From a virus (Duplodnaviria > Caudoviricetes): DNA of 57,610 bases. The DNA lies in the IMG/VR virus record IMGVR_UViG_3300034103_001617, positions 1 through 57,610 of that record; one strand, 5' to 3'. The translations under genes were made by a program, and so were the position numbers. Below the pieces are notes generated by a model that did not search any database, was not told the DNA's origin, and was given only the letters and a program-made list of their open reading frames with translations. Shown here piece by piece: positions 34,791 through 49,292 of the stretch (positions within the stretch are counted from its first letter, which is position 1; each line of letters opens with the position of its first letter).

Positions 34791-34819
34791 ATTATAGCAT
34801 TTGGGAAATTAAAGGTCAA
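34791..34819 (-). promoter_or_regulatory. sigma70-type promoter
   Basis: TTGACC-17-TATAAT with extended TG. Confidence 0.7.
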
Positions 34820-34838
34820 TCGTGTCTGTGTGCCAGAT

Positions 34839-35441: not shown

Positions 35442-35457
35442 TTACATACTTATAAAT

Positions 35458-35547
35458 TGGCGGAAGCGGTGAGATTCGAACTCACGGACAATTTCTCGTC
35501 GTCTGTTTTCAAGACAGGTGCAATAAACCGGGCTCTGCCACACTTCC
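35458..35547 (-). tRNA. tRNA-Ser(TGA)
   Basis: Cloverleaf with long V arm, CCA encoded. Confidence 0.9.
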
Positions 35548-35559
35548 ATAAATATTTTT

Positions 35560-36393
35560 GTGAGTAAGTTACATTTAGATCATATCGAGTTCTATATTAC
35601 AAATGTTTGTAATCTTTCATGCGATAACTGTCGCAGTTTTAACAACTATAAATTTTCCGGCCATTACAAATTTGACGCAGAAGCCACACAGGCCTGGGCC
35701 GATAAGTTAGACATTGCGGACATAGCTATCATCGGCGGTGAACCAGCTTACCATCCTGATTTGGCAAGTTGGATTGTGGGACTGCGTAAATGTTGGCCAA
35801 ATGCTACTCTAAAGTTGATTTCAAATGGAACCAAACTTAGTCTAGTAAAAAATTTACACAAACTTCTTGCAGACAACAATTGTAAACTCAACATTTCAAC
35901 TCATGGTTATCATCTTAGACCGCAAATAGCTGAAGAAATCTTTTCAGCGTTCGGTGCATGCGAAGTATTACCTATAGAATCTTCAAAACTTTTTGGAGTT
36001 GTTAACAGTGTGTATTTTAGAACCAAGCTAGGTGTTATCATTGATTTGCAAAATGGCAACAGTTTACAAGAAATTTGTTTTGTAGACAACCAGTTTAATC
36101 TACACAATAGCGACGCTGAAAAAGCGCATTCCACCTGTGCCATACGCGAATGCCATCACATGATTGATTACAAGATATACAAATGTTCTATAGTGGGTCT
36201 GTTGCCTAGTTTTCTAAAACAGCAAAAACAAACCACGGATCATTTGCTGCCCTATCATGGCATTGACGTTGAGTCAGTTACACAAGACGTTCTTGATCAA
36301 CTTGCATTATCAATACCTCATTGCAAAATATGTCCTGAGGCCAATAGTTACAAACCCATAACCAGTGTGCTAAAGAAAATGCACAGAGTTTAG
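35560..36393 (+). CDS. Radical SAM protein
   Basis: EFYITNVCNLSCDNC, IGGEP, ISNGT, C-terminal CxxC. Confidence 0.88.
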   Translation: MSKLHLDHIEFYITNVCNLSCDNCRSFNNYKFSGHYKFDAEATQAWADKLDIADIAIIGGEPAYHPDLASWIVGLRKCWPNATLKLISNGTKLSLVKNLHKLLADNNCKLNISTHGYHLRPQIAEEIFSAFGACEVLPIESSKLFGVVNSVYFRTKLGVIIDLQNGNSLQEICFVDNQFNLHNSDAEKAHSTCAIRECHHMIDYKIYKCSIVGLLPSFLKQQKQTTDHLLPYHGIDVESVTQDVLDQLALSIPHCKICPEANSYKPITSVLKKMHRV

Positions 36394-36800
36394 TAAGGAT
36401 AGTCTTTGCTTATCCAATAGGACAAGGGAGTTTCAAAGTCAAATGCCAATGTTCCATCACAACCAACCACTGTGCCAAATTCTTCTATGGTGTGATCCCC
36501 GTATCCGTTGAAATTGTGAGTAAATGTGCCTTTGATCACAGGCATGACATCAATACCATCAAATGTTAGAGATTTCAATTCAACTGCTGCATCAACATTG
36601 TCAGTGGTTTCAATAAGTGCTCGTTTACCAGTAATTTCAATTTCAAACAAGTGTTTGATAATTTGTGTGTCATCTGCTTCAAACTCAAAGGTACATGCCT
36701 CATGATTTGCGAGCTGTTTGCCGTATGATATCTTGTCAACAAAGATTTCATAACTCAATGCGTCTTTGGTTAATGAAACAATTTGTAAGCCTATGTTCAT
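36390..36800 (-). CDS. Hypothetical protein
   Basis: ORF following tRNA-Leu. Confidence 0.55.
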   Translation of the reverse strand: MNIGLQIVSLTKDALSYEIFVDKISYGKQLANHEACTFEFEADDTQIIKHLFEIEITGKRALIETTDNVDAAVELKSLTFDGIDVMPVIKGTFTHNFNGYGDHTIEEFGTVVGCDGTLAFDFETPLSYWISKDYPY

Positions 36801-36808
36801 TGGTTAAT

Positions 36809-36892
36809 TGGTGCGGATAGAGGGACTTGAACCCCCACGCCTTTCGGCAACAGCTTCTAAGACTGCCATGGCTACCATTACATCATATCCGC
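36809..36892 (-). tRNA. tRNA-Leu(TAG)
   Basis: Cloverleaf with V arm, CCA. Confidence 0.9.
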
Positions 36893-36898
36893 AAAACT

Positions 36899-37468
36899 TC
36901 ATACAAAATGTGCTTTGAGAATTTCAGCTAGTTTGAAATAAGAAATTTCTTTATCACCATCTAAAAATGATACCTGACACAAATATCTATCTTTGCCAGA
37001 GTAATTGATTGCCGTATGCAGAATACCAGTGTTAACAAGCGTGGGGTTGGTGTGTATCTTGCTTCTATAGATTTCAGTTACGGAATCGTCTTCAACAGAA
37101 TAATTTTCTTTGTTTTCCCAATCACGTATCACTGTCATTGAATGTCCTGCCTTGAGTTCAAACCAAATTTGATCAGCATCATTGTGACCATATATCCAGT
37201 TTAATCGACCCCAGTCAGTGACACTAGGTCCGTCGATGTGTACTCTATGCGAAGGTGATTGTGCATTTGTTAGTCTAAAAAATGTTCTAAACAATACAAG
37301 TTCATGTGCTTCACAAAATTCAGTAAACTTTGGATTTATAAATTGTTTTGGCACAATTGGTGGAATACCTAGTTTTGGGTTCCAGGTGTTGTACCATTCA
37401 CATACATTTTCGAAACTAGTAAGTACGTCTGGTATACAAATATCTAAACTTTGACAAAATTTATTCAT
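36899..37468 (-). CDS. Hypothetical cupin/oxygenase-like protein
   Basis: HID...LNW...PTLVNTGILH...R pattern. Confidence 0.5.
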   Translation of the reverse strand: MNKFCQSLDICIPDVLTSFENVCEWYNTWNPKLGIPPIVPKQFINPKFTEFCEAHELVLFRTFFRLTNAQSPSHRVHIDGPSVTDWGRLNWIYGHNDADQIWFELKAGHSMTVIRDWENKENYSVEDDSVTEIYRSKIHTNPTLVNTGILHTAINYSGKDRYLCQVSFLDGDKEISYFKLAEILKAHFV

Positions 37469-38132
37469 TGCTTATCAGTGCTTGCTGCATCCAGTCAGTG
37501 CTTTGTGCTGATTCAATTTCGTGAACATAGTATAGATCAGGACCTGTCCAATATTTACTTAAGATTTTCCTATAAAAATCTTCGGTTCTTTGACTGCTGA
37601 TACTGTGTATGATTTTATGATAATCTAGAATTTGTGCGTCGTTGACTGCTATATTTGCAGGGGCAATATTAGACTGTGCCGGTTGGCCGCAAATGAAACA
37701 AAACTTGGTTGTGCGCTTGGCGATTTGGCCTAACCACCATTCAAAATCTTGATCCAATATTGAGCCTACTACCCAAATACACACTGTGCAATCGTATTGT
37801 TGATCCGGCCAGTGATCAATGCCAGGCACAGCAGGATCAAATTGATCGTATACATCCAGCCCAAAACGTTCAACTATGGTCATTGGCGCAGTAAGCGTAT
37901 TTGACACATGATCAATCCAACGTTGAGGTTCAAGTTGTAAACCTCGACCTGCACCTACTTCCAACATTGAGTGTGTATTGTACTTTTCTAGAAGATTGCA
38001 AATCAACGGCTCTGCTTTGAGTAGGCCTTGCCCATCTCCCCAGTGTCTACCATCAGATGATGCAAATGTCATAGGCCTTTGATGCATTAGCCTAGACATT
38101 CTAATTATTTCACTGTAACCATCACTGACCAT
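37461..38132 (-). CDS. Class I SAM methyltransferase-like protein
   Basis: LEVGAGRG, FDPAVP, QYDCTVC. Confidence 0.6.
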   Translation of the reverse strand: MVSDGYSEIIRMSRLMHQRPMTFASSDGRHWGDGQGLLKAEPLICNLLEKYNTHSMLEVGAGRGLQLEPQRWIDHVSNTLTAPMTIVERFGLDVYDQFDPAVPGIDHWPDQQYDCTVCIWVVGSILDQDFEWWLGQIAKRTTKFCFICGQPAQSNIAPANIAVNDAQILDYHKIIHSISSQRTEDFYRKILSKYWTGPDLYYVHEIESAQSTDWMQQALISNE

Positions 38133-38159
38133 GTTATATTTCTAATCTGTGTAAGCAAT

Positions 38160-38250
38160 TGGTGCTCCCGCCCGGAGTCGAACCAGGATTGGCCGTTTAT
38201 CTGACGCTACGGGATATAAGTCCGCTGTTTTACCATTAAACTACAGGAGC
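38160..38250 (-). tRNA. tRNA-Ile(TAT) with long variable arm
   Basis: GCTCCTG/CGGGAGC-A-CCA acceptor, loop CTTATAT, 21-nt variable region, TTCGACT T loop. Confidence 0.75.
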
Positions 38251-38254
38251 ACGG

Positions 38255-38554
38255 TTACTCATCATCTGGCATCAAACCATTGTGTTTTTTGTCTCTGACA
38301 TTGTCCAGATCTTGTTCAAGTTTGAGTTCTTGCGGTGTTTTCATTCCATGCACCTTTCGCGGATTACCACATAAAGCACATTCTGGACGACCACAATCCA
38401 TGGCATGATGTTTTACAAGCCTGTGTGGTTCTTTAAGCATAGCGTTTTTGTCAGAAATTCCACGTTGCTTGGCGATCTTGACTTGTCTCGCCACCGCGCT
38501 TTCATCTTTGTGTCTGCGCCGCGAGTTTGAAAATTTGTTTTGTTCGTTACTCAC
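38255..38554 (-). CDS. Hypothetical basic protein with Cys motif
   Basis: HAMDCGRPECALCGNPR. Confidence 0.65.
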   Translation of the reverse strand: MSNEQNKFSNSRRRHKDESAVARQVKIAKQRGISDKNAMLKEPHRLVKHHAMDCGRPECALCGNPRKVHGMKTPQELKLEQDLDNVRDKKHNGLMPDDE

Positions 38555-38564
38555 AGTGGTTCCT

Positions 38565-38639
38565 TGGTTGCAGGGGGCGGATTCGAACCGCCGATCCCCA
38601 GGTTATGAGCCTGGTGAGATGCCTCTTCTCCACCCTGCG
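38565..38639 (-). tRNA. tRNA-Met(CAT), initiator type
   Basis: C1:A72 mismatch, CTCATAA loop. Confidence 0.85.
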
Positions 38640-38996
38640 TCTAAATTTATTTAAGAATTCTTTTCACTCTTACGCGGAGCACGTGATTGATTTTTTACCA
38701 CTTCAACAAAGTCTCTTAAAAAATTATCGCGTTTTTGTTTATCAAAAATTCCAGCTGCCATGGCCTTGACTGGTTTGGTTAACTTAACTGCTTTTGGGTC
38801 ATATCCTCTACAGGTCATAAAATTCCTTTTAGCTAGGTATTACGTGGGGAATATATGGTACGTTTCTTGGACCACCATATAGTTGTTCAAAAAGTTTTTT
38901 TGCTTCTTGTGGAGTGTCTGCATACACACGTTTTTTTTCATCACCATTTGGTGTACGCACTGTGGTTTCATATAAAGGCATTTAATTTCCTTGCAA

Positions 38997-39074
38997 TGGT
39001 CGGGGAAGAGGGATTCAAACTCTCGATCTCCTGCTCCCAAAGCAGGCGCTTTAATCAGACTAAGCTACTCCCCG
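38997..39074 (-). tRNA. tRNA-Pro(TGG)
   Basis: Cloverleaf, TTTGGGA loop, CCA. Confidence 0.9.
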
Positions 39075-39117
39075 CTGTTTTTAGTTATACCGCACAGTAA
39101 CTAAAATTTTTTTCTAA

Positions 39118-39212
39118 CATATAGAAACACTCTTGATCTCCAGTCCATCATGGTGATCAATCCACTTTTGACCTTCAATGATCCTGCGTCCAGTTTAGAG
39201 TGTTTTTATATG
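39118..39212 (-). ncRNA. Candidate structured RNA closed by a 16-bp stem
   Basis: CATATAGAAACACTCT / AGAGTGTTTTTATATG inverted repeat abutting tRNA-Lys. Confidence 0.45.
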
Positions 39213-39287
39213 GTAGGTGCGGTGAGACTCGAACTCACAACTTATCGGTTAAAAGCCGATTACTCTAACCAGTTGAGTTACGCACCC
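39211..39287 (-). tRNA. tRNA-Lys(TTT)
   Basis: Cloverleaf, CTTTTAA loop, CCA. Confidence 0.9.
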
Positions 39288-39355
39288 ATACGTTTGGGAC
39301 CGTCGTCCGTTTTGTCACTGTCCATGTGTGGACTCTCCTTTGTTAACTTACACAC

Positions 39356-39384
39356 ATTGTACTATCGTTTCATATTATGGTCAA
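39356..39384 (-). promoter_or_regulatory. sigma70-type promoter inside tRNA array
   Basis: TTGACC-17-TACAAT. Confidence 0.65.
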
Positions 39385-39861
39385 GCCATAAAAGTAAGAC
39401 TACCGTCAAAAACACAACACTCAAAGCCCCATGATTGTTTCTCCTTTGTAGTACCTATTTTGCTATGTAAACACAGCCTGCATTGACTCTGTAACCGTCA
39501 ATCTTTACTGTGGCCAAGATTTGTTCTTTGGCCTTGATGCATTCGGCATGTCCGGCATATTTTAAATTTAAACTGCCATTGCTGGTCGAACTACCGGGCA
39601 TGATGCTAAACAACGTTATTACAAGTATCCACATCTTATTGCTCCTTTGATTATTTTTTAGTTGTTTTTGGACTGCACAACGCAACATGTTCAGGATGCT
39701 TGTCACTCCACTGCTTGTGAGCAATCATGCATTCTTGATAGTTTGGATATTCTTTTTTATACACAAACTTCATTGTTGGTGGTGGGTCGGTCCACAGTTG
39801 TATGATTAAAATCCAAGGCATTAAATCCATACAAGTCTCCTCTTTAGTAAAATGCCAAACT

Positions 39862-39935
39862 TGGTACCCCCGGATGGTAACGATCCAACGTCTATCGATT
39901 ATCAATCGATTGCTCTGCCTTTGAGCTACAGGGGC
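39862..39935 (-). tRNA. tRNA-Ile(GAT)
   Basis: TTGATAA loop; non-canonical T loop ATCGTTA. Confidence 0.85.
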
Positions 39936-40116
39936 ATTATTTTTGTACACAGTCAACTTTGAGTTTAGACTGTACTTTGTTGAGGTAGTATTCAAGTCTT
40001 GACTTTCGTTCAAGACAGGTGGGCAAATCATTTAACACTTCATGTTCTACATAATTGCTGGTTACGCCAAACCATATTATCAGTGCAAATTTCATTGTTT
40101 TGCCTCCTTGGCTGTT

Positions 40117-40192
40117 TGGTGCCGACTCTTGGTTTCGAACCAAGCCCTTGTGCTCTTCAGGCACACGCTTCCACCAGGTTAGCTTAGTCGGC
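40117..40192 (-). tRNA. tRNA-Phe(GAA)
   Basis: CTGAAGA loop, CCA. Confidence 0.88.
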
Positions 40193-40194
40193 AA

Positions 40195-40270
40195 TGGGGT
40201 ATCTGACCGGTATTGATCCGGTACTACCGCTTTCACAGAGCAGGGTGCAGGCCACTACACTACAGACACC
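40195..40270 (-). tRNA. tRNA-His(GTG)
   Basis: G-1:C73 pair, CTGTGAA loop; T loop ATCAATA. Confidence 0.85.
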
Positions 40271-40272
40271 AT

Positions 40273-40348
40273 TGGTAGGGGATGAGGGACTCGAACCCCC
40301 GAATGTCGGAATCAAAATCCGATGCCTTGCCAGCTTGGCGAATCCCCA
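40273..40348 (-). tRNA. tRNA-Gln(TTG)
   Basis: TTTTGAT loop, CCA. Confidence 0.88.
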
Positions 40349-40352
40349 GTTG

Positions 40353-40381
40353 AAAAAGAAAAGAGGTAGCAAGCTACCTCT
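40353..40381 (-). terminator. Terminator-like hairpin after pqqA
   Basis: AGAGGTAGC-tt-GCTACCTCT followed by TTTCTTTTT. Confidence 0.65.
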
Positions 40382-40405
40382 CAATGTATTACCTAAATTG
40401 ATGAA

Positions 40406-40477
40406 TCAACGATTTGCGATATACATTGTGATCTCGAAGCCGAAGCGTAGATCAGTTGCTGTTGGTTTGGTCCACAT
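40406..40477 (-). CDS. pqqA: Pyrroloquinoline quinone precursor peptide [23 protein letters not shown]
   Basis: Translated by hand (absent from ORF track); MWTKP...GFE-x-T-x-Y with invariant ExxxY; AAAGGAGA RBS. Confidence 0.93.
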
Positions 40478-40597
40478 GTTTTTCTCCTTTGAAATATACA
40501 TGTACTGCACATGTATTTAAAGCATGATAACACAGTCTAGCCAATATATCTATACATAATAAACTTAATGTACCGTAATGATTTTCATGAAACTTAT

Positions 40598-40672
40598 TGG
40601 CCCGGCGTGAGGGAATCGAACCCCCATTAAGAGTTTAGAAGACTCCTGTCCTATCCATTGAACGAACGCCAG
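40598..40672 (-). tRNA. tRNA-Arg(TCT)
   Basis: CTTCTAA loop, CCA. Confidence 0.87.
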
Positions 40673-40673
40673 G

Positions 40674-40749
40674 TGGAGCGGGTAATCGGGTTCGAACCGA
40701 TGACATCTACCTTGGCAAGGTAGTGCTCTGCCAACTGAGCTACACCCGC
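40674..40749 (-). tRNA. tRNA-Gly(GCC)
   Basis: TTGCCAA loop, U73, CCA. Confidence 0.9.
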
Positions 40750-40753
40750 ATGT

Positions 40754-41236
40754 TTATGCCGCAAGTTTTTTTAACCTGTCAGCGGCATAACTAGCCGCAA
40801 AAGCATTTGGCTTCACTAGAGGAATCACATTGCATGTACCACGAATGTAACCAATTGCCTGTGTTATAACACAACTTGATCCTGCATGTTCATCAGGATT
40901 GATATCAAGGTGAACTTCTACATGATAGTCTTCAAGCTCTGGCGCAAGACGTTGAAACACTTCACTGACTTTGTAGACTTCATTCATAAGTCGCATGCTT
41001 GGCTTTGATAGCTTGTGATCATAATCGCGTTCTCTACTGACTTCACCAAATATCTTACAACCATTGTTACCGTTGACATGGATGACCAATGCAACAGTGT
41101 ACTCTGCCCACCATTGTTTGCCTTCGCGATATCTAAAACTGTCTGCACCCAAATAAATTTTGGTATTTGGCCCGCAGGTGGCAAGATATTGTTGTACTGT
41201 TTCTAATTTGATTGTTCTTGCCATCAAGGCCTCCAT
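40754..41236 (-). CDS. RNase H-like YkuK/DUF458 family protein
   Basis: KIYLGADS, RLMNEV, EVHLDIN, KPNAFAASYAAD. Confidence 0.82.
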   Translation of the reverse strand: MEALMARTIKLETVQQYLATCGPNTKIYLGADSFRYREGKQWWAEYTVALVIHVNGNNGCKIFGEVSRERDYDHKLSKPSMRLMNEVYKVSEVFQRLAPELEDYHVEVHLDINPDEHAGSSCVITQAIGYIRGTCNVIPLVKPNAFAASYAADRLKKLAA

Positions 41237-41237
41237 T

Positions 41238-42368
41238 TTAGTTTATGGCCGGTCCGGAGAGATTCGAACTCCCGACAGCTGGTTTCGAAGACCAGAACTC
41301 TTCCGCTGAGCTACGGACCGTGTTGTAAAATTTTATTTTCTTAGTACCGGCTTCAAATTTTGAGTTATAATCTCCAGTGGACTGACAAAATTTACATTGT
41401 GCTATGGGTTTGTCTTTTTTCAATTCTAGCACAAAGTTTTCGAGTTCTCCATCAGTGGCTGTGACCTTGCAGTGTTTGTACTTGTTTAATAACTCAAAAT
41501 CTTCTGCACTGATATCAAATTGAAACTGGTTTAACATTTCTGGCAGTAGTGCCACTGTGCTGCATTTGTACAAGTTACCACGATTTAGATGATGAACCAT
41601 GATTTCAAGTTCACGATCACGACCGCAACACACAGCATAGGCAGCTTTGATGTTGCTGTTGTGCAATGACATGTTGCCAGTGGTGTTGTCATATATCACT
41701 GCACTGGTCCAAAATTGATTTTTTAACGAAACCGGAACAACTATGCCTAGATCATTTCTAACTTCGCTTACATATAAATTATTGATCCAATTGTTGTAAC
41801 TCAGTCCAAAGATCTCACTGCATTCATCTTGTATTTGAGACGGCAATTCTAGAAAGTCTTCGGGTGTCTTGCATTCTGGCCACAATGGATCTTTAATCTG
41901 CTGATAACTGTTTAGCCAAGTGGTTATTTCACTGTGATTGGGTTTGTGAGTCACAGTGGCATTGTTGCCCAACCAAGACATCAAGTCATTGCATATTTTT
42001 TGTTTCTGTTTGACACCATGAGCACTTATTGTTAACAGTAATCTACTTTTATATTTTTCCAAAAGTGATCTAACTTCTGGGTATCTATGCAGTTCAGTTC
42101 CATTGCTCAACAACTCAATGTTGCTGTTGGGCCACAGCTCCAGGACATTTTCAAGCCAAGGCATCAAATCTGGATGTACAAATGGTTCTCCGCCTAGTAT
42201 ACCTATGGTCTTGATATGAAGACGCTGACTCCAAGTTTTGTAAATTTGCTTGTAGTCGTTCCAACGTTGGTGACCTCGAAATGCAAAATTGTTGAATGTA
42301 ACACAATTAGGACAATTTAGATTACAAACATTTGTAATGTAGATCTCGCAACGTTCTATGCTAACCAT
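41238..42368 (-). CDS. Radical SAM protein (3' end reads through tRNA-Arg)
   Basis: EIYITNVCNLNCPNC, LGGEP, SNGT, C-terminal CKFC; start placed at MVSIER. Confidence 0.85.
   Translation of the reverse strand: MVSIERCEIYITNVCNLNCPNCVTFNNFAFRGHQRWNDYKQIYKTWSQRLHIKTIGILGGEPFVHPDLMPWLENVLELWPNSNIELLSNGTELHRYPEVRSLLEKYKSRLLLTISAHGVKQKQKICNDLMSWLGNNATVTHKPNHSEITTWLNSYQQIKDPLWPECKTPEDFLELPSQIQDECSEIFGLSYNNWINNLYVSEVRNDLGIVVPVSLKNQFWTSAVIYDNTTGNMSLHNSNIKAAYAVCCGRDRELEIMVHHLNRGNLYKCSTVALLPEMLNQFQFDISAEDFELLNKYKHCKVTATDGELENFVLELKKDKPIAQCKFCQSTGDYNSKFEAGTKKIKFYNTVRSSAEEFWSSKPAVGSSNLSGPAIN
41246..41320 (-). tRNA. tRNA-Arg(TCG)
   Basis: CGGTCCG/CGGACCG acceptor, CTTCGAA loop, CCA. Confidence 0.88.
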
Positions 42369-42555
42369 TACGTCTATTCGCTGATTTTGCTGCACGATAT
42401 TGTAGCACACCTTCGTAAGCCAAAACAAGCCAACCACACAGTGCCATGATGTAGGCGTTAACTGCGGCCCAGTTATTTGCCATGAAACTCAACACTAGAT
42501 TAACCAAAATGGCAACAACTGCAACTACTGGAAATAAATTTATAAAATGTAACAT
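42361..42555 (-). CDS. Small membrane protein
   Basis: GGAGG RBS before MLHFINLF; two hydrophobic helices. Confidence 0.6.
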   Translation of the reverse strand: MLHFINLFPVVAVVAILVNLVLSFMANNWAAVNAYIMALCGWLVLAYEGVLQYRAAKSANRRNG

Positions 42556-42575
42556 GACTACCTCCAAAAAAAATT

Positions 42576-42668
42576 TGGCGGAAACGGTGGGATTCGAACC
42601 CACGGACCATTGTTAAGATGATCGACGGTTTAGCAAACCGCTGCCTTCGGCCACTCAGCCACGTTTCC
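42576..42668 (-). tRNA. tRNA-Ser(GCT)
   Basis: Long V arm, TTGCTAA loop, G73. Confidence 0.9.
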
Positions 42669-42677
42669 AGATGTTGA

Positions 42678-42881
42678 TCACTTGTAACGATCTTTCATTT
42701 CATTAACTGTGGAATCAAATTCCAAGCGAGTTAAAATCAACGAATACATTACCACAACACAAACCATGATTCCAAACACAGGCAAAGCCCACCAACTCAG
42801 TTGACTCAGTACATACCCAATACCAAACGGTATTGCTAAACTTAAAAAAGTGTACAACGCTGCTTTGATTTTCAATGACAT
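42678..42881 (-). CDS. Small membrane protein
   Basis: AAGGAG RBS; two hydrophobic helices. Confidence 0.6.
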   Translation of the reverse strand: MSLKIKAALYTFLSLAIPFGIGYVLSQLSWWALPVFGIMVCVVVMYSLILTRLEFDSTVNEMKDRYK

Positions 42882-42912
42882 AGCTGTCTCCTTAACAAAC
42901 TGTATAACCTAG

Positions 42913-42941
42913 ATTTTACTTTAAGTTAGATATTTTGTCAA
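42913..42941 (-). promoter_or_regulatory. sigma70-type promoter inside tRNA array
   Basis: TTGACA-17-TAAAAT. Confidence 0.65.
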
Positions 42942-42949
42942 GTGAAATT

Positions 42950-43025
42950 TGGTGGTGAAGGAGGGATTTGAACCCCCGACACTCTCCGTATGAAGGAGGT
43001 ACTCTACCATCTGAGCTACATCACC
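42950..43025 (-). tRNA. tRNA-Met(CAT), elongator type (Ile2 not excluded)
   Basis: Paired 1-72, TTCATAC loop, A73. Confidence 0.8.
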
Positions 43026-43027
43026 TT

Positions 43028-43264
43028 TTAGTTGCCCCAAGCAAGAACGAACAATGTTCTATCTTGATCCCATTTAAAGGCTATACCAATGTTGTTGAGT
43101 ATATTACAATCATCATAAGCCCACACAGCATATCTTGGACCCACGCGATCTTTGAGCCAACTTTCAACAACAGTAATACCTTGTATCCAATCTACTTGGC
43201 AGTGATCAAACACAGGCCAAGGCACTGTAGCATGGTATTGAAAGCGGTGCCAGTCCACTAACAT
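43028..43264 (-). CDS. Hypothetical phage protein (FxLxW C-terminal family)
   Basis: ATG 5 nt after TAAATA; ends TLFVLAWGN. Confidence 0.6.
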   Translation of the reverse strand: MLVDWHRFQYHATVPWPVFDHCQVDWIQGITVVESWLKDRVGPRYAVWAYDDCNILNNIGIAFKWDQDRTLFVLAWGN

Positions 43265-43275
43265 GCCGATATTTA

Positions 43276-43353
43276 TGGAGCAACGGGCGTGATTCGAACA
43301 CGCGGTTTTCAGGATTTGCAGTCCCGTGCATTGGGCCTCTCTGCCACCGTTGC
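43276..43353 (-). tRNA. tRNA-Cys(GCA)
   Basis: CTGCAAA loop, U73. Confidence 0.88.
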
Positions 43354-43360
43354 ATAAAAT

Positions 43361-43434
43361 TGGTGCCCCTTGACAGAATCGAACTGCCAATCCATGATTA
43401 CAAGTCAAGTGTTATGCCATTTAACTAAAGGGGC
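43361..43434 (-). tRNA. tRNA-Thr(TGT)
   Basis: CTTGTAA loop, CCA. Confidence 0.88.
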
Positions 43435-43479
43435 AATCAATCATTACGATCTATAAAAATAAAGTTAATAAATATTTCA

Positions 43480-44355
43480 ATGCTGAAAATATTCACTGCT
43501 GAGTTCTACCTCACACACCATTGCAATCTTGACTGCGAGCATTGTAATCGATTTTCTAATTATAAAGCATTACGCGGTCATCGCAGTTGGCAAAATTATG
43601 CAGCAGAGTACCAAAGTTGGGCAAACAACCTTGATATAGATATCATAAGCATTCTTGGCGGAGAGCCATTGATGCATCCGGATATCTTAGAATGGATGCA
43701 ACAAATAAGAAGTTGGTGGCCAAAATCATCTTTGTACTTAATGACCAACGGCACACTGTTGAATCGTGTATCTGGTTTGTACGATGCGGCAAAAGATTAT
43801 CAATATGTAATTGACATCAATGTGCATAATCCAAGTTGGTACAACCAAACCGTTCAAAGTCTTGACAATTTTTTCCCCGGCCAATATACAATAGAACAGG
43901 CCAAAGATGATCCTATTTTTTCTAGACAAGTTGCAAAAGATCACAATGGGGTAGAAGTTCACATCAAACACAGCTCACGCATGCACCAAAGCACGGTGCT
44001 ACTCAATCAAGACAAGTTTCATTTACACCAAAGCGATCCAGTAAAAGCTCACAGTGTTTGCTGGAACGCAACATGCCATCACTTTTTCAATGGCAAACTT
44101 TTTAAATGTGCAATGCCACCATTGCTGAAAGAATTTTCCAATGTGTGCTATCTAGATCTATCCGAGGAAGACCGAGCACTTATTGATGGTCCCAGCGGGA
44201 TAACAGTGGATGACGCTGTGGCTGATCCTGATAAGTTTTATCAATATCTAAAAGGACCAATTGAGCATTGCCGCTTGTGTCCAGAAGAACTTGAATTTAA
44301 AAATATAGCAGCAAAGGTTGCCAAAACTGTTATACCAATTCAGCTGTATCGCTGA
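43480..44355 (+). CDS. Radical SAM protein
   Basis: EFYLTHHCNLDCEHC, LGGEPL, MTNGT, C-terminal CRLCP. Confidence 0.88.
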   Translation: MLKIFTAEFYLTHHCNLDCEHCNRFSNYKALRGHRSWQNYAAEYQSWANNLDIDIISILGGEPLMHPDILEWMQQIRSWWPKSSLYLMTNGTLLNRVSGLYDAAKDYQYVIDINVHNPSWYNQTVQSLDNFFPGQYTIEQAKDDPIFSRQVAKDHNGVEVHIKHSSRMHQSTVLLNQDKFHLHQSDPVKAHSVCWNATCHHFFNGKLFKCAMPPLLKEFSNVCYLDLSEEDRALIDGPSGITVDDAVADPDKFYQYLKGPIEHCRLCPEELEFKNIAAKVAKTVIPIQLYR

Positions 44356-44369
44356 TCACTGCATTGTAC

Positions 44370-44445
44370 TGGTGGGCGGTGACAGGTTCGAACTGCCGAC
44401 ATTCGCGGTGTAAGCACGACGCTCTACCAACTGAGCTAACCGCCC
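44370..44445 (-). tRNA. tRNA-Val(TAC)
   Basis: CTTACAC loop, CCA. Confidence 0.88.
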
Positions 44446-44452
44446 AAGAAAT

Positions 44453-44704
44453 TTAGTTGTCCTTGACGTCTTTGGCATCAACGCAGGTTTCACCTCTAAA
44501 CACATAGACGTCACTGTCTAATCTTAGCTGTTCAAACACTTGATTGTTTACGCAGATATAAGGATCTTTGTGATTTTCCATGTAAAAGAATATGCCGTAG
44601 CCTATGCCTGCCAACACCATTAGTATGGGTGTGTACTTTAGATACTTTACAATCTCAGGCATTGCACCCAAAATTTGCGGCAAATTTTTAAGCAGTTCTT
44701 TCAC
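44453..44704 (-). CDS. Small membrane protein
   Basis: GTG 5 nt after TAAATA; one hydrophobic helix. Confidence 0.55.
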   Translation of the reverse strand: MKELLKNLPQILGAMPEIVKYLKYTPILMVLAGIGYGIFFYMENHKDPYICVNNQVFEQLRLDSDVYVFRGETCVDAKDVKDN

Positions 44705-44717
44705 GCTGATATTTATG

Positions 44718-44792
44718 TGGTACACCATAGCGGAGTCGAACCGCTCTTGCTGGAATGAAAATCCAGAGTCCTAACCGATAGACGAATGGTGC
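44718..44792 (-). tRNA. tRNA-Glu(TTC)
   Basis: TTTTCAT loop, CCA. Confidence 0.88.
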
Positions 44793-44804
44793 ATAAAATT
44801 TAAT

Positions 44805-45243
44805 GCTAACAAGGAACTGACTGTTACATGATGCCGAAGTCATTACCGCATCAAACCCTTGCTAAACCCGCATTGCGGGACGATTCGCACTCAATCGTTT
44901 TGATCTAAATCTTGCTTAATGAAGCCAATATTAGTTTTGCAGTTTATACTATATGCCTCGCTCAACAGCTTTACACGTGATTACTGTTTATTGCTTCGGT
45001 TACATAATGCCTCGCGCCGGCTTCTGTGCTTACAAACTGCAAAATTAATATTGCTTAGGCTACTTGTTTTCCAGGCAAGCCCCTATGCTGAGTTGTTACC
45101 CTGTCCACATTTGTTTCAGCGTATCGTGCTACCGGTTGTGTCCGGATATCTAGGTGCTGTGCTCTGCATTGCGCTAACGGTAGCCTAGCCAACCGGTCTA
45201 ACTAACGTGTGACACCCGGCACTTTCAGGAAAGTGCTAACCGG
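44805..45243 (-). ncRNA. Tandem candidate structured ncRNAs between tRNA-Asn and tRNA-Glu
   Basis: Successive closed domains with terminal stems at about 44805-44917, 44926-45053 and 45056-45187, plus a hairpin to 45243; no credible ORF. Confidence 0.55.
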
Positions 45244-45246
45244 AAC

Positions 45247-45322
45247 TGGCTGCTCAGGTTGGGCTCGAACCAACGACACACGGATTAACAGTCCGCTGAT
45301 CTACCGACTGATCTACTGAGCA
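45247..45322 (-). tRNA. tRNA-Asn(GTT)
   Basis: CTGTTAA loop, G73. Confidence 0.88.
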
Positions 45323-45330
45323 ATAAACTT

Positions 45331-45408
45331 TGGCGACACTTACGGGATTCGAACCCGTGATCTCTGGCGTGACAGGCCAGCGCATTGGGCCAGCTATGCT
45401 AAAGTGCC
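45331..45408 (-). tRNA. tRNA-Asp(GTC)
   Basis: CTGTCAC loop, G73. Confidence 0.88.
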
Positions 45409-45417
45409 TTTTGCTAT

Positions 45418-45503
45418 TGGTACCCGGAGCCGGACTCGAACCGGCACGCCCTATCGAGCATTGGATTTTAAGTCCAAGGTGTCTACCATTCCACCACCCG
45501 GGC
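45418..45503 (-). tRNA. tRNA-Leu(TAA)
   Basis: V arm, CTTAAAA loop. Confidence 0.9.
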
Positions 45504-45545
45504 ATATTTTTTAAATTGTAAAAGATCAAGCACAACCAAGTTCGC

Positions 45546-45574
45546 ATTGTACTAGATTACAATTTTGGAGTCAA
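45546..45574 (-). promoter_or_regulatory. sigma70-type promoter inside tRNA array
   Basis: TTGACT-17-TACAAT; perfect palindrome TGTTGT-N6-ACAACA just upstream (45583-45600). Confidence 0.65.
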
Positions 45575-45616
45575 TAAAATTGTGTTGTATTTTTACAACA
45601 AACAATTGATGTAAGT

Positions 45617-45691
45617 TGGTGGAGGTACCCGGATTCGAACCGAGGACTCCGCGGTGCAAACGCAGTGTTTTCCCAATTATACTATACCCCC
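45617..45691 (-). tRNA. tRNA-Ala(TGC)
   Basis: G3-U70, TTTGCAC loop. Confidence 0.87.
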
Positions 45692-45699
45692 ACAGGTTA

Positions 45700-45773
45700 T
45701 GGAGCGGCGTGCGAGAATCGAACTCGCGACTTTAGCTTGGAAGGCTAAGGTAATACCATTTTACGAACGCCGC
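45700..45773 (-). tRNA. tRNA-Gly(TCC)
   Basis: CTTCCAA loop, U73. Confidence 0.9.
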
Positions 45774-45778
45774 ATAGA

Positions 45779-45852
45779 TGGCGACCCTTGAGAGATTTGA
45801 ACTCCCACCGACGGTTTTGGAGACCGGTATGCTGCCGTTACACTAAAGGGCC
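45779..45852 (-). tRNA. tRNA-Trp(CCA)
   Basis: CTCCAAA loop, G73. Confidence 0.88.
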
Positions 45853-45855
45853 GTG

Positions 45856-46089
45856 TCAAACTGAAACTATTTCAACTGATACTGGATTAAAGCCTTGCAC
45901 GTAGTTCAACAATATTTGAGCATCTGTTTCATTCATAAATGACCATTCCACAGTGGCATGCCCACTTGGTACGTCATCTTTTAACTCCCAGGCTAAAGCC
46001 TTGCCGGGGTAGTTTTCAAGGAAGGCTAGTGCTTCCTCTGGGTTTGGTGAACTCTCAGCGAACACAGCGCGAACAAGTTTAATTGTCAT
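45856..46089 (-). CDS. Hypothetical protein
   Basis: AGGAG RBS. Confidence 0.6.
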   Translation of the reverse strand: MTIKLVRAVFAESSPNPEEALAFLENYPGKALAWELKDDVPSGHATVEWSFMNETDAQILLNYVQGFNPVSVEIVSV

Positions 46090-46115
46090 AATGGTCTCCT
46101 AATACAATATTTATT

Positions 46116-46200
46116 TGGTGGGGATCCAGGGACTCGAACCCCGTATGTCAGAGACGTCGGATTTACAGTCCGATGCAGTAGCCAGTTCTGCTCGATCCCC
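46116..46200 (-). tRNA. tRNA-Tyr(GTA)
   Basis: V arm, CTGTAAA loop, CCA. Confidence 0.9.
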
Positions 46201-46203
46201 CGG

Positions 46204-46380
46204 CATTCTAAAACACACTATCAGTGCGTTTTAGAATACCCTGTGCTGTAGCACAGGATATGTTAGGGTCGACGCCCTAACCAGTAGTCTTACTAATACG
46301 TTACCGCCGTATTTTCATGTATACTGTCCGCCCATTCGCTGTTTTTAAGTGAACAGCAGGCTCTCGTTGCCTGTAAAACA
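46204..46380 (-). ncRNA. Candidate structured leader RNA upstream of tRNA-Tyr
   Basis: Back-to-back hairpins (AGGCAACGAGAGCCT, GCTGTT/AACAGC, AATACG/CGTATT, GTTAGGG/CCCTAAC, CCTGTGCT/AGCACAGG, ATTCTAAAAC/GTTTTAGAAT). Confidence 0.5.
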
Positions 46381-46550
46381 CATTATACGCTGTTTTGCTT
46401 TGTTTCGTAACGCTGTTTGGACAAAGCACGTTTGGCTCGTTCAATCTTGGCTTGTATCAGTTCTTGAAACTGAGTTGAACTAAGAGTGTGGTCTCGAAAC
46501 CATTTTTGCTCGCGTAGTTTATTTTTAAGTTTATCTTCTTCCATATTGCA

Positions 46551-46585
46551 AATAAAAAACCCTGGAGTTTTTAATTCCAGGGTCC
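46551..46585 (-). terminator. Attenuator terminator
   Basis: GACCCTGGA...TCCAGGGTT stem followed by TTTTATTT; its 5' arm also pairs with CAGGGTTC in the leader ORF. Confidence 0.8.
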
Positions 46586-46607
46586 GATAAAATCTTGTGA
46601 TACCTAA

Positions 46608-46733
46608 TTAAGATTTAAGAACCCTGAGTTTGGAATCCCCATTAATACGTGTGCGTGAATTAAACCAAACCAATGATTGACATTCACTGGTCATCTTGGG
46701 ATACGCCGACGAATAATGTAGTTCTAGTTTCAT
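46608..46733 (-). CDS. Putative attenuator leader peptide MKLELHYSSAYPKMTSECQSLVWFNSRTRINGDSKLRVLKS (41 aa, all 20 amino acids)
   Basis: Translated by hand; ATG at predicted +1 of promoter; overlaps antiterminator arm. Confidence 0.7.
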   Translation of the reverse strand: MKLELHYSSAYPKMTSECQSLVWFNSRTRINGDSKLRVLKS

Positions 46734-46739
46734 AGTTCT

Positions 46740-46768
46740 ATAATAATGCAAAGTTGTTTTATTGTCAA
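46740..46768 (-). promoter_or_regulatory. sigma70 promoter of tRNA-array leader (leaderless transcript)
   Basis: TTGACA-17-TATTAT-6nt-ATG. Confidence 0.75.
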
Positions 46769-46933
46769 CTTCAACTTGTTCTATTTATACCTCTAACGAC
46801 TTTGTATGATATTTATGTTTTTGGTTACGCTGATATTTAGTGCGAATACGCATGCGTTGGCAACGATTGTGGTTATTTTTTGCCACAAAATTTCTAGGCT
46901 TGAAATCTATCAACAATTGTTGAACCACGTCGT

Positions 46934-47203
46934 TCATTCTAAATCACCTTTAAGTGAGTGCCAAATTTTAGGATCACAGCCCAAATATATATGATACTTT
47001 TTGTAATTTAACCAATTTGTAATTCGTTGCACAATACGTTCAATATAATTAAAAAACCAATCTCTAAACCAAAATGGATTGCAAACTGCTACCAACAAAA
47101 CCAACAAAATGGGAACAATCAACACCGCAACACAGGTCCAATGAAACGCCATGGCATGATAAAAGTTCCCACCGTTTGGTTCAAGATTGATTTCTTTTTG
47201 CAT
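46934..47203 (-). CDS. Membrane protein
   Basis: Hydrophobic helix, NPFWFRD; own promoter. Confidence 0.6.
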   Translation of the reverse strand: MQKEINLEPNGGNFYHAMAFHWTCVAVLIVPILLVLLVAVCNPFWFRDWFFNYIERIVQRITNWLNYKKYHIYLGCDPKIWHSLKGDLE

Positions 47204-47246
47204 AATACCAATAGTACAATATCTTTGAATTTATGTCAACTGACTT

Positions 47247-47286
47247 GATGCTTCTCTCCGCGGCGGTAATCATAACCCATAGCATT
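47247..47286. repeat. Short copy of GATGCTT(C)CTCTCCGCGGCGGTAAT element
   Basis: Near-identical to the start of 47637..47679; ATGCT/AGCAT closing stem. Confidence 0.7.
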
Positions 47287-47294
47287 CTCCTTGT

Positions 47295-47576
47295 TTATTT
47301 CGCCCACACTAGAGCAAAGGCTGTGGCTAGACTATTGTTTGCAAATCTGTAACTGTCTCTGTACTCAAAATAATCATCGCCACAGCGGTAACCGTGTTTA
47401 GTGAACCATTGGGTAATATTTTCAAAACGCTGGTTGATTTCGTTTCTGATGCGGCTTCTTTCGCGCATGGATTCGTTGTGTTCTGCTTGATACCAAAGAT
47501 CCTCAAAGAAAGGGTCTTTGTCAAGAGCAACACAAAGATGCGGATAAGGATCTTTTTGTATTGTATCTGACCACAT
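47295..47576 (-). CDS. Hypothetical phage protein (FxLxW C-terminal family)
   Basis: AGGAG RBS, promoter TTGACT-17-TATAAT at 47602-47630; ends TAFALVWAK. Confidence 0.6.
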   Translation of the reverse strand: MWSDTIQKDPYPHLCVALDKDPFFEDLWYQAEHNESMRERSRIRNEINQRFENITQWFTKHGYRCGDDYFEYRDSYRFANNSLATAFALVWAK

Positions 47577-47636
47577 ACATGACTCCTATAACGAAAGTGT
47601 CATTATAACAAAATGAGTAATTAGAGTCAATCTAAA

Positions 47637-47825
47637 GATGCTTCCTCTCCGCGGCGGTAATTATACTGCATCAAGCATTGCTGCTATCACACACAGCCTC
47701 CACCCGCTCCCCGACCGGAGAGAATTCTCGCATTGCCAGCGCCGTTTGCACCAAACGGTAAGGTCCTGACCTACCACGGCCTTCTCATCCTCCGGACCAG
47801 AGTAGGGGGTGGCGCCCCCACGTCC
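47637..47825 (-). ncRNA. Candidate GC-rich structured ncRNA
   Basis: GC-rich island in AT-rich context with hairpins GTGGGGG/CCCCTAC and CCGTTTG/CAAACGG; 3' module duplicated at 47247. Confidence 0.5.
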
Positions 47826-48001
47826 TTTAATCTGCGGGATTGAGCAGATCTTCAAAAACCTTAAACACTTCATGTACAGAAATTTGTAGTTCTGAAGCAA
47901 TCCATTCTACTGTTTCCACTTCTTGACCGTAGCGGTCTCCTAGGTTTTGTGCTAGTTCCAAAATTTGTTTATCGATATTTTTCATTACTTTCTCCTTTAA
48001 A

Positions 48002-48343
48002 TTAATCTAAACGACTACCTGCGTAAGCATCAAAACCGTACTTGCGGAACACAAGAGCCGCTGCCCTAGCACCTTCTTCCAGCGTATCAATGTTCTGCGC
48101 CGGATAGCCTGCAGGATTCCATAGTTGGAAAGTCTTGGTGTAGTCTTGGCGCACACCTGCGGCCTTGAGCATACGGCCTAGTTTGGTATTGCCTTTGACC
48201 TTGAAAATGCTGGTCCATGCAAAGCCACAGGCATATTGGTCTACACCGCCCAGCCGCTCACGGAAGAACTTGTCCGATGCCTCATAGGCAGCATCTCGGG
48301 CTTCACGCACAATGGCGTTGACTTGATCTTGTGTAAAGTCCAT
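48002..48343 (-). CDS. Hypothetical phage protein
   Basis: ACGFAW...AYAGSRLD motifs; GGAGG RBS. Confidence 0.7.
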   Translation of the reverse strand: MDFTQDQVNAIVREARDAAYEASDKFFRERLGGVDQYACGFAWTSIFKVKGNTKLGRMLKAAGVRQDYTKTFQLWNPAGYPAQNIDTLEEGARAAALVFRKYGFDAYAGSRLD

Positions 48344-48591
48344 TTTAAATTACTCCTCCCAATTATAATCACTAAGGTCAGAATCATAGGAAACGTCCAC
48401 CAATTTACCTTGTTCGCCCAAACGAACAAAAAGAGCTACAAGGATGTCCATAAGGGCATCATTGGTAAGGTGATACTTCACAGCCACTTCCTCGAAGGAA
48501 AGTGGGCCCATCAAGTCTTTTTGGATTCGGTGTGTTGTGATGCAGGCAACGTTTGCCATGTTTTTTCCTTTTGGTTGTTTGTCTATAATAA

Positions 48592-48891
48592 TCAAGCACT
48601 CCAAAAAGTTTCGCTGGATGGGCTGCAATAGTACGGAGTATCATAACGCTCCAGATACTCTTTACCTGACATCATGTTCTTGCGAGAGACAAAAGTCTCA
48701 TACACATACACAACCAAGCCTTCCTTGCGGAAGTCATCGGCCAGTGTTTCGATGTAGTCACGGGTCACTGGTGCAAAGTCCTTGACTTCTACAAAACGCA
48801 GACCCTTTTTGTTACGACCGTAACGCTCGTCGCGCTTGATACGATTGTCTTTTTTGTAGATCTCGAACGTGTATTCAGTAAGTTTGCCCAT
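48592..48891 (-). CDS. Hypothetical phage protein
   Basis: RKNMMSGKE...DTPYYCSPSSETFWS; AAGGAG RBS. Confidence 0.7.
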   Translation of the reverse strand: MGKLTEYTFEIYKKDNRIKRDERYGRNKKGLRFVEVKDFAPVTRDYIETLADDFRKEGLVVYVYETFVSRKNMMSGKEYLERYDTPYYCSPSSETFWSA

Positions 48892-48898
48892 TTCGTAT

Positions 48899-48952
48899 GC
48901 TCCTTGTTATTCACTATACACATATTATAGCAAATCAGGATTTATTGGCCAA
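48899..48952 (-). promoter_or_regulatory. Early-type promoter/leader cassette, copy 1
   Basis: TTGGCC-17-TATAAT then GTATAGTGAATAACAAGGAGC (21-nt repeat shared with 50543-50563). Confidence 0.7.
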
Positions 48953-48986
48953 CCAATTTAAGTGTTACTGAAATTGCAACTGTTGC

Positions 48987-49292
48987 TTATTCAGCAACAG
49001 TTAGCATATTTGCAGGCACTGTCCAAGTGGTGTAGCCCTCGCGCACCTTGACATTTTTTATGTTGATTTTAACAACATTTCCTTGATGTGTACGCCCGCT
49101 GCGGGGATTTACAAATCTAACAACATCTCCCATGATGATAGACCGTTTGTTTTCTTTTACAATCTGACCACGACGGTATTTGATGGCGCTGACAATGCTA
49201 TTGAGTTGTTCATTGGTAAACGATCCAAACATGATTTGGCTATTGATTTGTTGAATGGACAAGTCAGACATGTATCGCTCCTTTATCAGCAA
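48987..49292 (-). CDS. Hypothetical SH3-fold-like protein
   Basis: GDVVRF...GNVVKIN.KNVKV...WTVPANML. Confidence 0.6.
   Translation of the reverse strand: MLIKERYMSDLSIQQINSQIMFGSFTNEQLNSIVSAIKYRRGQIVKENKRSIIMGDVVRFVNPRSGRTHQGNVVKINIKNVKVREGYTTWTVPANMLTVAE

Follow-up and report, generated by a model that had tools for sequence, protein, structure and literature searches.

The DNA analysed here, a stretch of 57,610 nt from a virus of the Caudoviricetes (positions 1 to 57,610 of IMG/VR record IMGVR_UViG_3300034103_001617; hereafter the window), includes a short open reading frame (ORF) that lies between a promoter and an intrinsic terminator at the head of a large tRNA gene array. All elements of this leader module are on the minus strand, and coordinates are given as window positions. 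The promoter is of the sigma-70 type (46740-46768) and scored 11/12 in a promoter scan of the window, with a consensus -35 box (46768-46763), a 17-nt spacer and a -10 box that matches the consensus at five of six positions (46745-46740). The leader ORF, which comprises 41 codons and a stop codon (46608-46733), is leaderless, its ATG being located at 46733, 6 nt past the -10 box, with no Shine-Dalgarno sequence. The encoded peptide includes all 20 amino acids, which are found within codons 6-33, so that the set is complete by codon 33, and 31 different sense codons are used. This arrangement had been described previously from the letters of the window (hereafter the sequence-only reading), and the promoter, the ATG spacing, the leaderless 41-codon ORF, the complete amino-acid set and the number of codons were all confirmed.

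The end of the leader ORF and the sequence behind it can be folded into either an antiterminator or a terminator. The upstream (5') arm of the antiterminator, an 8-nt segment in codons 36-39 (46619-46626), pairs with the 5' arm of the terminator; the amino-acid set, complete at codon 33, thus precedes this arm, which begins in codon 36. An inner stem-loop (46590-46616) has a 7-bp stem (46616-46610 and 46596-46590), and the stop codon (46610-46608) begins inside the 5' arm of this stem. The intrinsic terminator (46551-46585) is made up of arms at 46585-46576 and 46566-46557, a 9-nt loop and a T run at 46559-46554. The distance from the stop codon is 22 nt to the terminator and ~56 nt to the T run.

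Taken in isolation, the two elements are about equal in stability (-15.8 kcal/mol for the antiterminator and -14.3 kcal/mol for the terminator hairpin). When the window transcript was truncated before the terminator 3' arm, the antiterminator paired at a probability of 0.88-1.0, so that folding bore out the proposed pairing of codons 36-39 with the terminator 5' arm and the inner stem that extends it. In the full-length transcript, the ensemble was divided at about 0.31 to 0.68. The energy of the antiterminator duplex was -15.1 kcal/mol versus a shuffle mean of -10.2 kcal/mol, and 2.2% of 1000 shuffles were as low. A further hairpin (46668-46692), part of a larger predicted fold of the ORF body, may act as a pause or synchronising element; the window's own ORF body is not unusually structured (z -0.78 versus shuffles).

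Downstream of the terminator, ARAGORN identified 26 tRNA genes at 46200-35458, which cover all 20 amino acids as the sequence-only reading had stated, and one tmRNA. The first gene past the terminator, p53 (46383-46544), encodes a charged protein of 53 aa, lacks a Shine-Dalgarno sequence and starts 13 nt past the terminator 3' arm. The first tRNA of the array is tRNA-Tyr (46116-46200). As the promoter scan of the window lists no promoter between 46551 and 46200, tRNA-Tyr would be, barring an unlisted promoter, the first tRNA that depends on read-through of the terminator.

The chance of finding such an arrangement was estimated from the window. A complete set of amino acids, for which the sequence-only reading had asked for a chance estimate, is rare per window of six-frame open sequence (15 of 29,956 for 33 aa and 148 of 24,077 for 41 aa), but does not stand as evidence on its own. 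Five loci in the window reach all 20 amino acids in at most 33 codons, three of the 205 ATG-initiated ORFs of 30-60 aa have all 20, and a span of at most 28 codons with the full set is present in 58% of 200 Markov-3 random sequences of the window's size (57.6 kb). Shuffles of the upstream RNA weakened the terminator as strongly in 4% of 300 cases, the occupancy of the nascent 5' arm was unremarkable (17% of 300 shuffles were at least as high), and clean terminators lie behind many genes on the minus strand. The single-sequence case is therefore weak, given that more than half of the random sequences hold such a span and the stem is only mildly unusual, and an attenuator judged from the window sequence only would be a long shot.

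Recovery and conservation of the module in related phages

The window occurs in lake-water metagenomes, and the longest contigs of its group are 355 and 365 kb. The leader peptide had no homologue in a set of 5.8 billion protein clusters, in Pfam or in NCBIfam, and gave only chance matches (E 4-10) in a phage collection, in which p77 gave none. Neither an exact 19-mer of the switch nor p53, p77, p89, p50 or the 399-aa radical-SAM gene had a match in viral contigs; p53 was also without a match in metagenome contigs, and p50 matched a single metagenome locus (L023), which has neither the leader nor tRNAs. The 113-aa gene at 48002-48343 led to 22 IMG/VR loci, none of which includes a leader or a tRNA array within the flanks. 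The DNA of 46100-47100 matched the phage collection only in tRNA-Tyr, and p91 was found among genome contigs in a single contig of 564 bp.

The route that succeeded used the tRNA positions in the whole records of relatives, followed by a 91-aa gene embedded in the array as an anchor. In the record G005, the array is preceded by a module in which the ATG lies 10 nt past the -10 box, the 39-codon ORF includes all 20 amino acids and the stop codon is located beside the inner stem. The terminator of G005 differs from that of the window by two-sided stem changes, and the upstream arm in the ORF is changed along with it. The array-embedded protein is 92% identical between the window phage and G005, and the anchor gave 19 loci. 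A pattern search over five records recovered only its positive control, G005, and a fuzzy match to the terminator identified the module in 12 of the 19 anchor loci. Of these, L039 and L044 were dropped as repeats of L037 and L043, and L040 contributed two copies.

A covariance model (R1) was built from four copies and searched over 34 sources (517 kb). All 12 known copies were recovered together with a new one in L047, and nothing else matched except two echoes of terminators on the reverse strand. Both the terminator pattern and the R1 search are blind to the peptide. In total, 13 copies are available, namely that of the window and 12 from 11 IMG/VR loci of related giant phages. Counts over 12 leaders given below refer to the window and 11 copies, with L047 excluded, and counts over 13 include L047. 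No module was found in L036, L038, L042, L045, L046 and L048, the contigs of L038 and L042 excluding the array head.

Each module consists of a promoter, a short ORF of 29-50 codons, an antiterminator and a terminator. A -35 box, a 17-nt spacer and a -10 box precede the leader in 12 of the 12 examined. The ATG lies 6-10 nt past the -10 box in nine of these, and in the other three it is located 30-49 nt past the -10 box, behind an AGGA motif. As judged by eye, L047 shows the leaderless layout and a terminator with a T run. The leader frame is open in all 13 copies, and no stop codon interrupts it in the 478 codons of the 12 leaders, versus 41 and 50 stops in the other two frames.

The module lies directly upstream of the first tRNA of an array in 12 of the 13 copies, the arrays comprising 4 to 28 tRNAs within the fetched loci. 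The exception is the second copy in L040, where both copies are on the plus strand and one (4286-4436) stands at the array head and the other (7701-7881) after six tRNAs. In L047, 5 nt separate the end of the T run from tRNA-Pro, a tRNA that can therefore be made only by read-through.

In all 12 leaders, the terminator hairpin (-14.7 to -21.1 kcal/mol) is followed by a T run, and the gap between the stop codon and the terminator 5' arm is 19-33 nt. In minimum-energy folds of the nascent transcript, from which the 3' arm is omitted, the terminator 5' arm pairs with the last 0-26 nt of the ORF in 12 of 12. When each leader's own duplex was compared with 1000 shuffles, the fraction as low was 0.000-0.056, and pairing an arm of one stem type with that of the other is weaker by about 5 kcal/mol. 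In nine leaders, the upstream arm either overlaps the stop codon or ends no more than 13 nt ahead of the first base of that codon. The inner stem adjoining the stop codon is present in the relatives inspected by eye, and the ORF body upstream of the arm is more structured than its shuffles (z <= -2) in eight of 12.

Since the MAFFT alignments (A1, A2, A3, A6 and A7) leave the upstream arm unaligned, with RNAalifold on A6 giving the terminator only, per-sequence folds and a covariance model were used to assess covariation. For the terminator (12 sequences), 97.9% of the cells were paired, four of eight pairs were changed on both sides, and none of 500 shuffles reached the score. For the antiterminator (13 sequences), 95.5% of 89 cells were paired and five of eight pairs showed two-sided changes, with none of 500 shuffles as high, these counts being taken from an alignment fitted to the model structure and hence biased towards that structure. 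When the same alignment was slid by one column, only 59-63% of the cells were paired. Thus, the conserved short ORF and the covarying terminator and antiterminator stems that the sequence-only reading had anticipated upstream of the tRNA arrays of relatives are both present.

Amino-acid diversity of the leader peptides

The open frame is accompanied by little conservation of the peptide. BLASTP gave no alignment between the leader peptide of the window and that of its nearest relative (L024). Among the 12 aligned peptides, the mean column identity was 33% and no column was invariant, and the pN/pS ratios within clades were 0.36-1.77, as calculated from small counts. The few residues in common map to RNA helices of the ORF body.

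All 20 kinds of amino acid were found in seven of the 13 leaders (the window, L030, L031, L035, L037, L041 and L047). Nineteen kinds are present in L032 and L033, which lack Cys, and in L034, which lacks Trp, and 18 in L043; the two copies of L040 have 16 kinds in 29 codons and 15 kinds in 34 codons. As a null, open windows of the same length were taken from six frames of 350 kb of these phages, which gave a mean of 14-17 kinds and a probability of 0.0002-0.03 for all 20. The full set occurs in six of the 12 leaders other than the discovery sequence, versus 0.083 expected, and five of the eight non-discovery lineages have a member with all 20 (tail 6.5e-10). With the worst member taken per lineage, the Fisher value was 4.7e-7, or 5.3e-6 when the window was left out.

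Six of the seven leaders with all 20 amino acids have the full set ahead of the upstream arm, and with only the pre-arm codons counted the Fisher value was 2.7e-7 (1.1e-5 with the window left out). An excess of amino-acid diversity combined with poor conservation of residues, as had been foreseen for the relatives, was therefore found. Given that the relatives show the module, the open frame, the covariation and the diversity excess, an explanation by chance fails.

A conserved CGT codon for Arg was considered as a regulatory codon and rejected. In 11 of the 12 leaders it precedes the arm by 1-7 codons, which is too close in several, and it is located inside a long-range helix of the ORF body; L040int has CGC instead of CGT, 11 codons before the arm.

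Proposed attenuation and competing explanations

The in silico results comprise a conserved module with an open frame, covariation in both stems, a stop codon that in most leaders lies close to the upstream arm, an excess of amino-acid diversity and a link to array heads. The module is probably a ribosome-mediated transcription attenuator at the array head in a family of giant freshwater phages, and slow decoding of any codon would raise transcription of the tRNAs. From this arrangement we infer that the leader is translated, in which direction the switch operates and what its physiological trigger might be.

Host RNA polymerase would start at the strong sigma-70-type promoter, with the 5' end of the transcript at or beside the ATG in most members, and a ribosome would translate the leader of 29-50 codons. 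The leaderless start would load the ribosome at the earliest moment, and the polymerase may be held at the structured ORF body until a ribosome catches up. As long as the end of the ORF is free of ribosomes, its last codons would pair with the 5' half of the terminator, resulting in read-through into the gene for the small charged protein and the tRNAs. If translation keeps pace with the polymerase up to the stop codon, the ribosome would mask or melt both the upstream arm and the inner stem, whereupon the terminator would fold and transcription would end. If the ribosome were held further back, the arm would be free, the antiterminator would form first and the polymerase would continue. A delay at any kind of codon, due to a missing amino acid or a tRNA that is depleted or cut, would in this way give more tRNA transcription. 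Because all 20 amino acids are spread ahead of the arm, the delay would be sensitive to any of them, which is the simplest reading of the diversity excess. Candidate triggers are starvation, decay of host tRNAs, anticodon nucleases and feedback from the phage's own tRNAs.

Termination is reported as ~90% at 28 bp and <10% at 5 bp (PMC4824070), and the 22 nt between stop codon and hairpin in the window would leave enough room for the terminator to form in the wake of a terminating ribosome. The ribosome-free nascent folds of all 12 leaders showed nothing that competes for the upstream arm; in the folding model, the default would therefore be read-through, and termination would need timely translation. 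The lack of a run of one amino acid, by which the sequence-only reading set the leader apart from trp/his-type attenuators, was borne out: no residue run was found and a diversity excess occurs instead.

A more far-reaching version, which we hold only tentatively, regards the leader as a universal gauge of aminoacyl-tRNA. The loss of any single tRNA to host anticodon nucleases, phage-induced decay of host RNA or starvation would induce the set of phage tRNAs, and fast decoding would turn the set off. If true, the leader would form part of a self-regulating circuit that serves both counter-defence and homeostasis of the viral translation kit.

Several observations weigh against the attenuator or limit its reach. 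The distance by which the upstream arm precedes the stop codon is 27 to 14 nt in L037, L043 and L041, which corresponds to the edge of the ribosome footprint (footprint sizes from PMC4824070), and in L030 the terminator dominates at equilibrium (P 0.99). The antiterminator counts carry the bias described above. Related arrays without such a leader occur in L036, G001 and G003. In the X24 RNA-library run, a 151-nt contig of depth 2 extends over 46617-46767; as this contig crosses the predicted start site, it is attributed to upstream read-through or to DNA in the library, and the RNA-library contigs are too thin to resolve the starts or ends of transcripts. The leader is identical in three DNA runs, and with 0 differences no microdiversity could be read from them.

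The significance of the diversity excess depends on the null, and under a stricter one (shuffles of each leader's own nucleotides with open frames kept) the Fisher value before inclusion of L047 was 0.0025, or 0.013 without the window; L047 alone gave 0.0006. The two copies of L040 and the leaders of L043, L032, L033 and L034 fall short of 20 kinds. Their missing amino acids are not matched by missing tRNAs, tRNA-Cys being carried by L032, L033 and L043 alike. Furthermore, the leader codons match the phage tRNAs no better than the codons of phage genes do.

The extent of control is also restricted. Three promoter-like sites with scores of 10-11/12 lie inside the array of the window (45574, 42941 and 39384), as does a clean terminator (40382-40361). 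Hence, the leader would directly govern at most the first array segment, which consists of p53, tRNA-Tyr, a 77-aa gene, tRNA-Trp, tRNA-Gly and tRNA-Ala. Of the original proposal that the leader controls the 26-tRNA array, the position at the head was upheld but control over the whole array was not.

In a competing reading, the attenuator is real but reports only the presence of a ribosome behind the polymerase, as set by ribosome supply, leaderless initiation or coupling, and the diversity is not sensed. The conserved ORF, the stems and the placement of the stop codon need no codon-specific sensing. As nine of the 12 leaders are leaderless, initiation could be the variable that is read, and the L040 copies and L043 keep the switch at ordinary diversity. 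Single codons also give a weaker stall than the codon runs of the classical trp and his leaders (PMC1183508). Such a reading is nevertheless unlikely, as it leaves unexplained the six leaders with all 20 amino acids among the 12 outside the discovery sequence (0.083 expected), the completion of the set before the arm in six of seven such leaders, and the differing positions of Cys in L030 and L031.

It was also considered that promoter, ORF and terminator simply make up a small early gene of the ordinary kind, whose peptide has a function such as host take-over, the complementarity being incidental. Other minus-strand genes also end in clean terminators, and pqqA (40477-40406) is an example of a small gene with a terminator within the array. 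The leaderless start is shared by p89 (start 47203) and a DUF7230 gene of L023 (~3967-4008), in which the start lies 7-9 nt past the -10 box with no Shine-Dalgarno sequence, and leaderless small early genes seem to be a habit of this phage group. A weak common skeleton of residues, namely Trp after an aromatic residue and Arg after Asn or Asp, could likewise reflect a functional peptide. However, the shared residues sit in the RNA helices of the ORF body, and the pN/pS ratios, the lack of an invariant column and the failure to find a homologue among the protein clusters, Pfam and NCBIfam are at odds with a conserved protein. Covariation between the upstream arm and the terminator would not be expected of a plain gene, and the fixed position at the array head would be left unexplained, which makes this an improbable account of the locus.

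That the locus makes a non-coding RNA with a never-translated frame, be it a structured leader or a small RNA of ~185 nt, is very improbable. In its favour are the spacing of ~185 nt between promoter and terminator, from which a small RNA would result, the structured ORF body of most leaders, the missing Shine-Dalgarno sequence of the window copy and the reported ability of attenuator RNAs to act in trans (PMC6614838). Against this stand the complete lack of stop codons in the leader frame compared with the other two frames, and the ATG, which either keeps its spacing from the -10 box or has gained an AGGA motif with the longer 5' end; in addition, no Rfam family matched at E up to 1. Finally, it is hardly credible that the leader is a pqqA-like precursor peptide for nearby radical-SAM enzymes, with the terminator setting the ratio of precursor to enzyme: pqqA is located directly upstream of the leader in L024/L030 and three radical-SAM ORFs lie in the window's array, but the antiterminator and the amino-acid diversity would be unexplained and no conserved core or recognition motif is present.

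Neighbouring genes and relation to known systems

A charged ORF of 52-55 aa occupies the position of p53 in nine of the 12 modules, with a mean column identity of 55% (alignment A4). The homologues are located at 2330-2497 in L030, 3679-3846 in L031, 5294-5458 in L032, 6988-7152 in L033, 9482-9646 in L034, 7823-7981 in L035, 7625-7792 in L041 and 4445-4609 in L040. The family had no match in Pfam, NCBIfam or PHROG and, though conserved and longer than the leader, has only 14-17 kinds of amino acid.

The tRNA array of the window includes further genes. The product of pqqA, a 23-aa ORF in the middle of the array on the minus strand with a good ribosome-binding site, matched TIGR02107 at 40.1 bits (cut-off 20). 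The clean terminator of the array follows this gene, and the homologue of pqqA in L024/L030 adjoins the leader. Three radical-SAM ORFs are found among the tRNAs (41238-42437 on the minus strand, and 43480-44355 and 35560-36393 on the plus strand), none of which reached any NCBIfam cut-off. Together, these genes hint at a phage-borne set for peptide modification. The leader peptide itself was examined as a PqqA-type precursor, and this assignment was rejected, as it matched neither TIGR02107 nor any NCBIfam model. A T-box was also rejected, since no Rfam match other than tRNA, tmRNA and chance matches was obtained at E up to 1 over 29000-49000.

The tmRNA (29923-30306, minus strand) matched the betaproteobacterial model of Rfam at 136.8 bits and the permuted model at 138.8 bits, which may hint at the host group. 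An unusually long tRNA-Ile(UAU) of 91-95 nt was found in L032 (5681-5775), L033 (7408-7502) and the window (38160-38250); it is the first tRNA past the module in the clade of L030, and in L024/L030 it was not called by Rfam or ARAGORN. The related array of L036 includes a tRNA with the anticodon CUA (9287-9361, plus strand), labelled Pyl by ARAGORN, which may be an amber suppressor.

Upstream of the leader, a GC-rich block of ~190 nt without an ORF (47640-47835, minus strand) is located between a 52-aa gene and a promoter at 47630, and had no match in Rfam. A repeat of ~25 nt is present just upstream of the -35 box of two promoters (at about 47245-47270 and 47636-47661). The window also encodes a full-length Hsp70/DnaK (27349-29229, minus strand) and a carbamoyltransferase (3177-4658, plus strand), and DNA matches to pstS were found.

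Attenuators of amino-acid operons, with which PMC1183508 and PMC3082878 are concerned, are represented by the trp, his, leu, thr, ilv and phe leaders of enterobacteria. The phage module resembles trp/his-type leaders in having a promoter-proximal short ORF, a terminator before the regulated genes and an antiterminator that uses the terminator 5' arm. The stop codon may likewise be placed for masking by the ribosome, the peptide is free to drift and the distance from stop codon to T run is on a similar scale (~56 nt in the window). Unlike these leaders, the phage ORFs have no run of codons for a single amino acid, and nearly every amino acid occurs once or a few times. In contrast to the trp leader, the ribosome-free fold predicts read-through and not super-attenuation, as none of the 12 leaders has a competitor of the 1:2 type. 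Moreover, phage tRNA genes and a small protein are found downstream in place of biosynthetic enzymes, and the phage leaders are mostly leaderless.

Multivalent attenuation is known from ilvGMEDA, which senses Leu, Val and Ile, and from thr, which senses Thr and Ile. As in these leaders, several amino acids would be sensed by one phage leader with mixed codons; however, the ilv and thr leaders use two or three amino acids in clusters, whereas up to 20 are represented in the phage leader, most of them by single codons.

In mycobacteria, leaderless polycysteine short ORFs are reported to form attenuators that respond to cysteine (10.1101/834739). They share with the phage module a leaderless first cistron whose translation sets downstream expression, which for the phage is a prediction; the mycobacterial ORFs are cysteine-specific and belong to a cellular operon, whereas the phage leader shows no residue enrichment and precedes tRNA genes. 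In antibiotic sensors such as vmlR (PMC9226507) and msrD (PMC10314930), stalling in a leader ORF is reported to switch a terminator off. A general sensing of translation trouble, as proposed for the phage leader, would be common to both, but the stall in vmlR and msrD is caused by a drug together with a specific nascent peptide and the regulated genes confer resistance, unlike in the phage. The likeness to T-boxes lies in the physiological logic, in which tRNA charging would act on a terminator switch; T-boxes bind uncharged tRNA directly, have no ORF and respond to one tRNA each, whereas the phage leader is ORF-based.

No attenuator before a phage tRNA array and no all-amino-acid leader peptide was found in the open full-text literature (supplements and subscription journals excluded), in line with the sequence-only reading, which knew of no such description. 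Large tRNA arrays are common in big phages and are believed to stand in for host tRNAs that have been degraded, cleaved by defence nucleases or are mismatched to phage codon usage. If the proposed mechanism is true, an attenuator that responds to decoding as a whole, and not to one amino acid, would be without precedent, as would the feedback control of a viral tRNA set. The natural leaders without Cys (L032 and L033) or Trp (L034) represent built-in controls, and searches for short upstream ORFs can make use of an excess of amino-acid diversity. Given its size of ~190 nt and its use of host-type signals only, the element would also make a compact reporter of translation stress if it works as proposed. 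Sharing the architecture of the trp/his-type leaders and differing from them in codon content, default state and downstream genes, the leader module is filed here as a new variety of ribosome-mediated attenuation.

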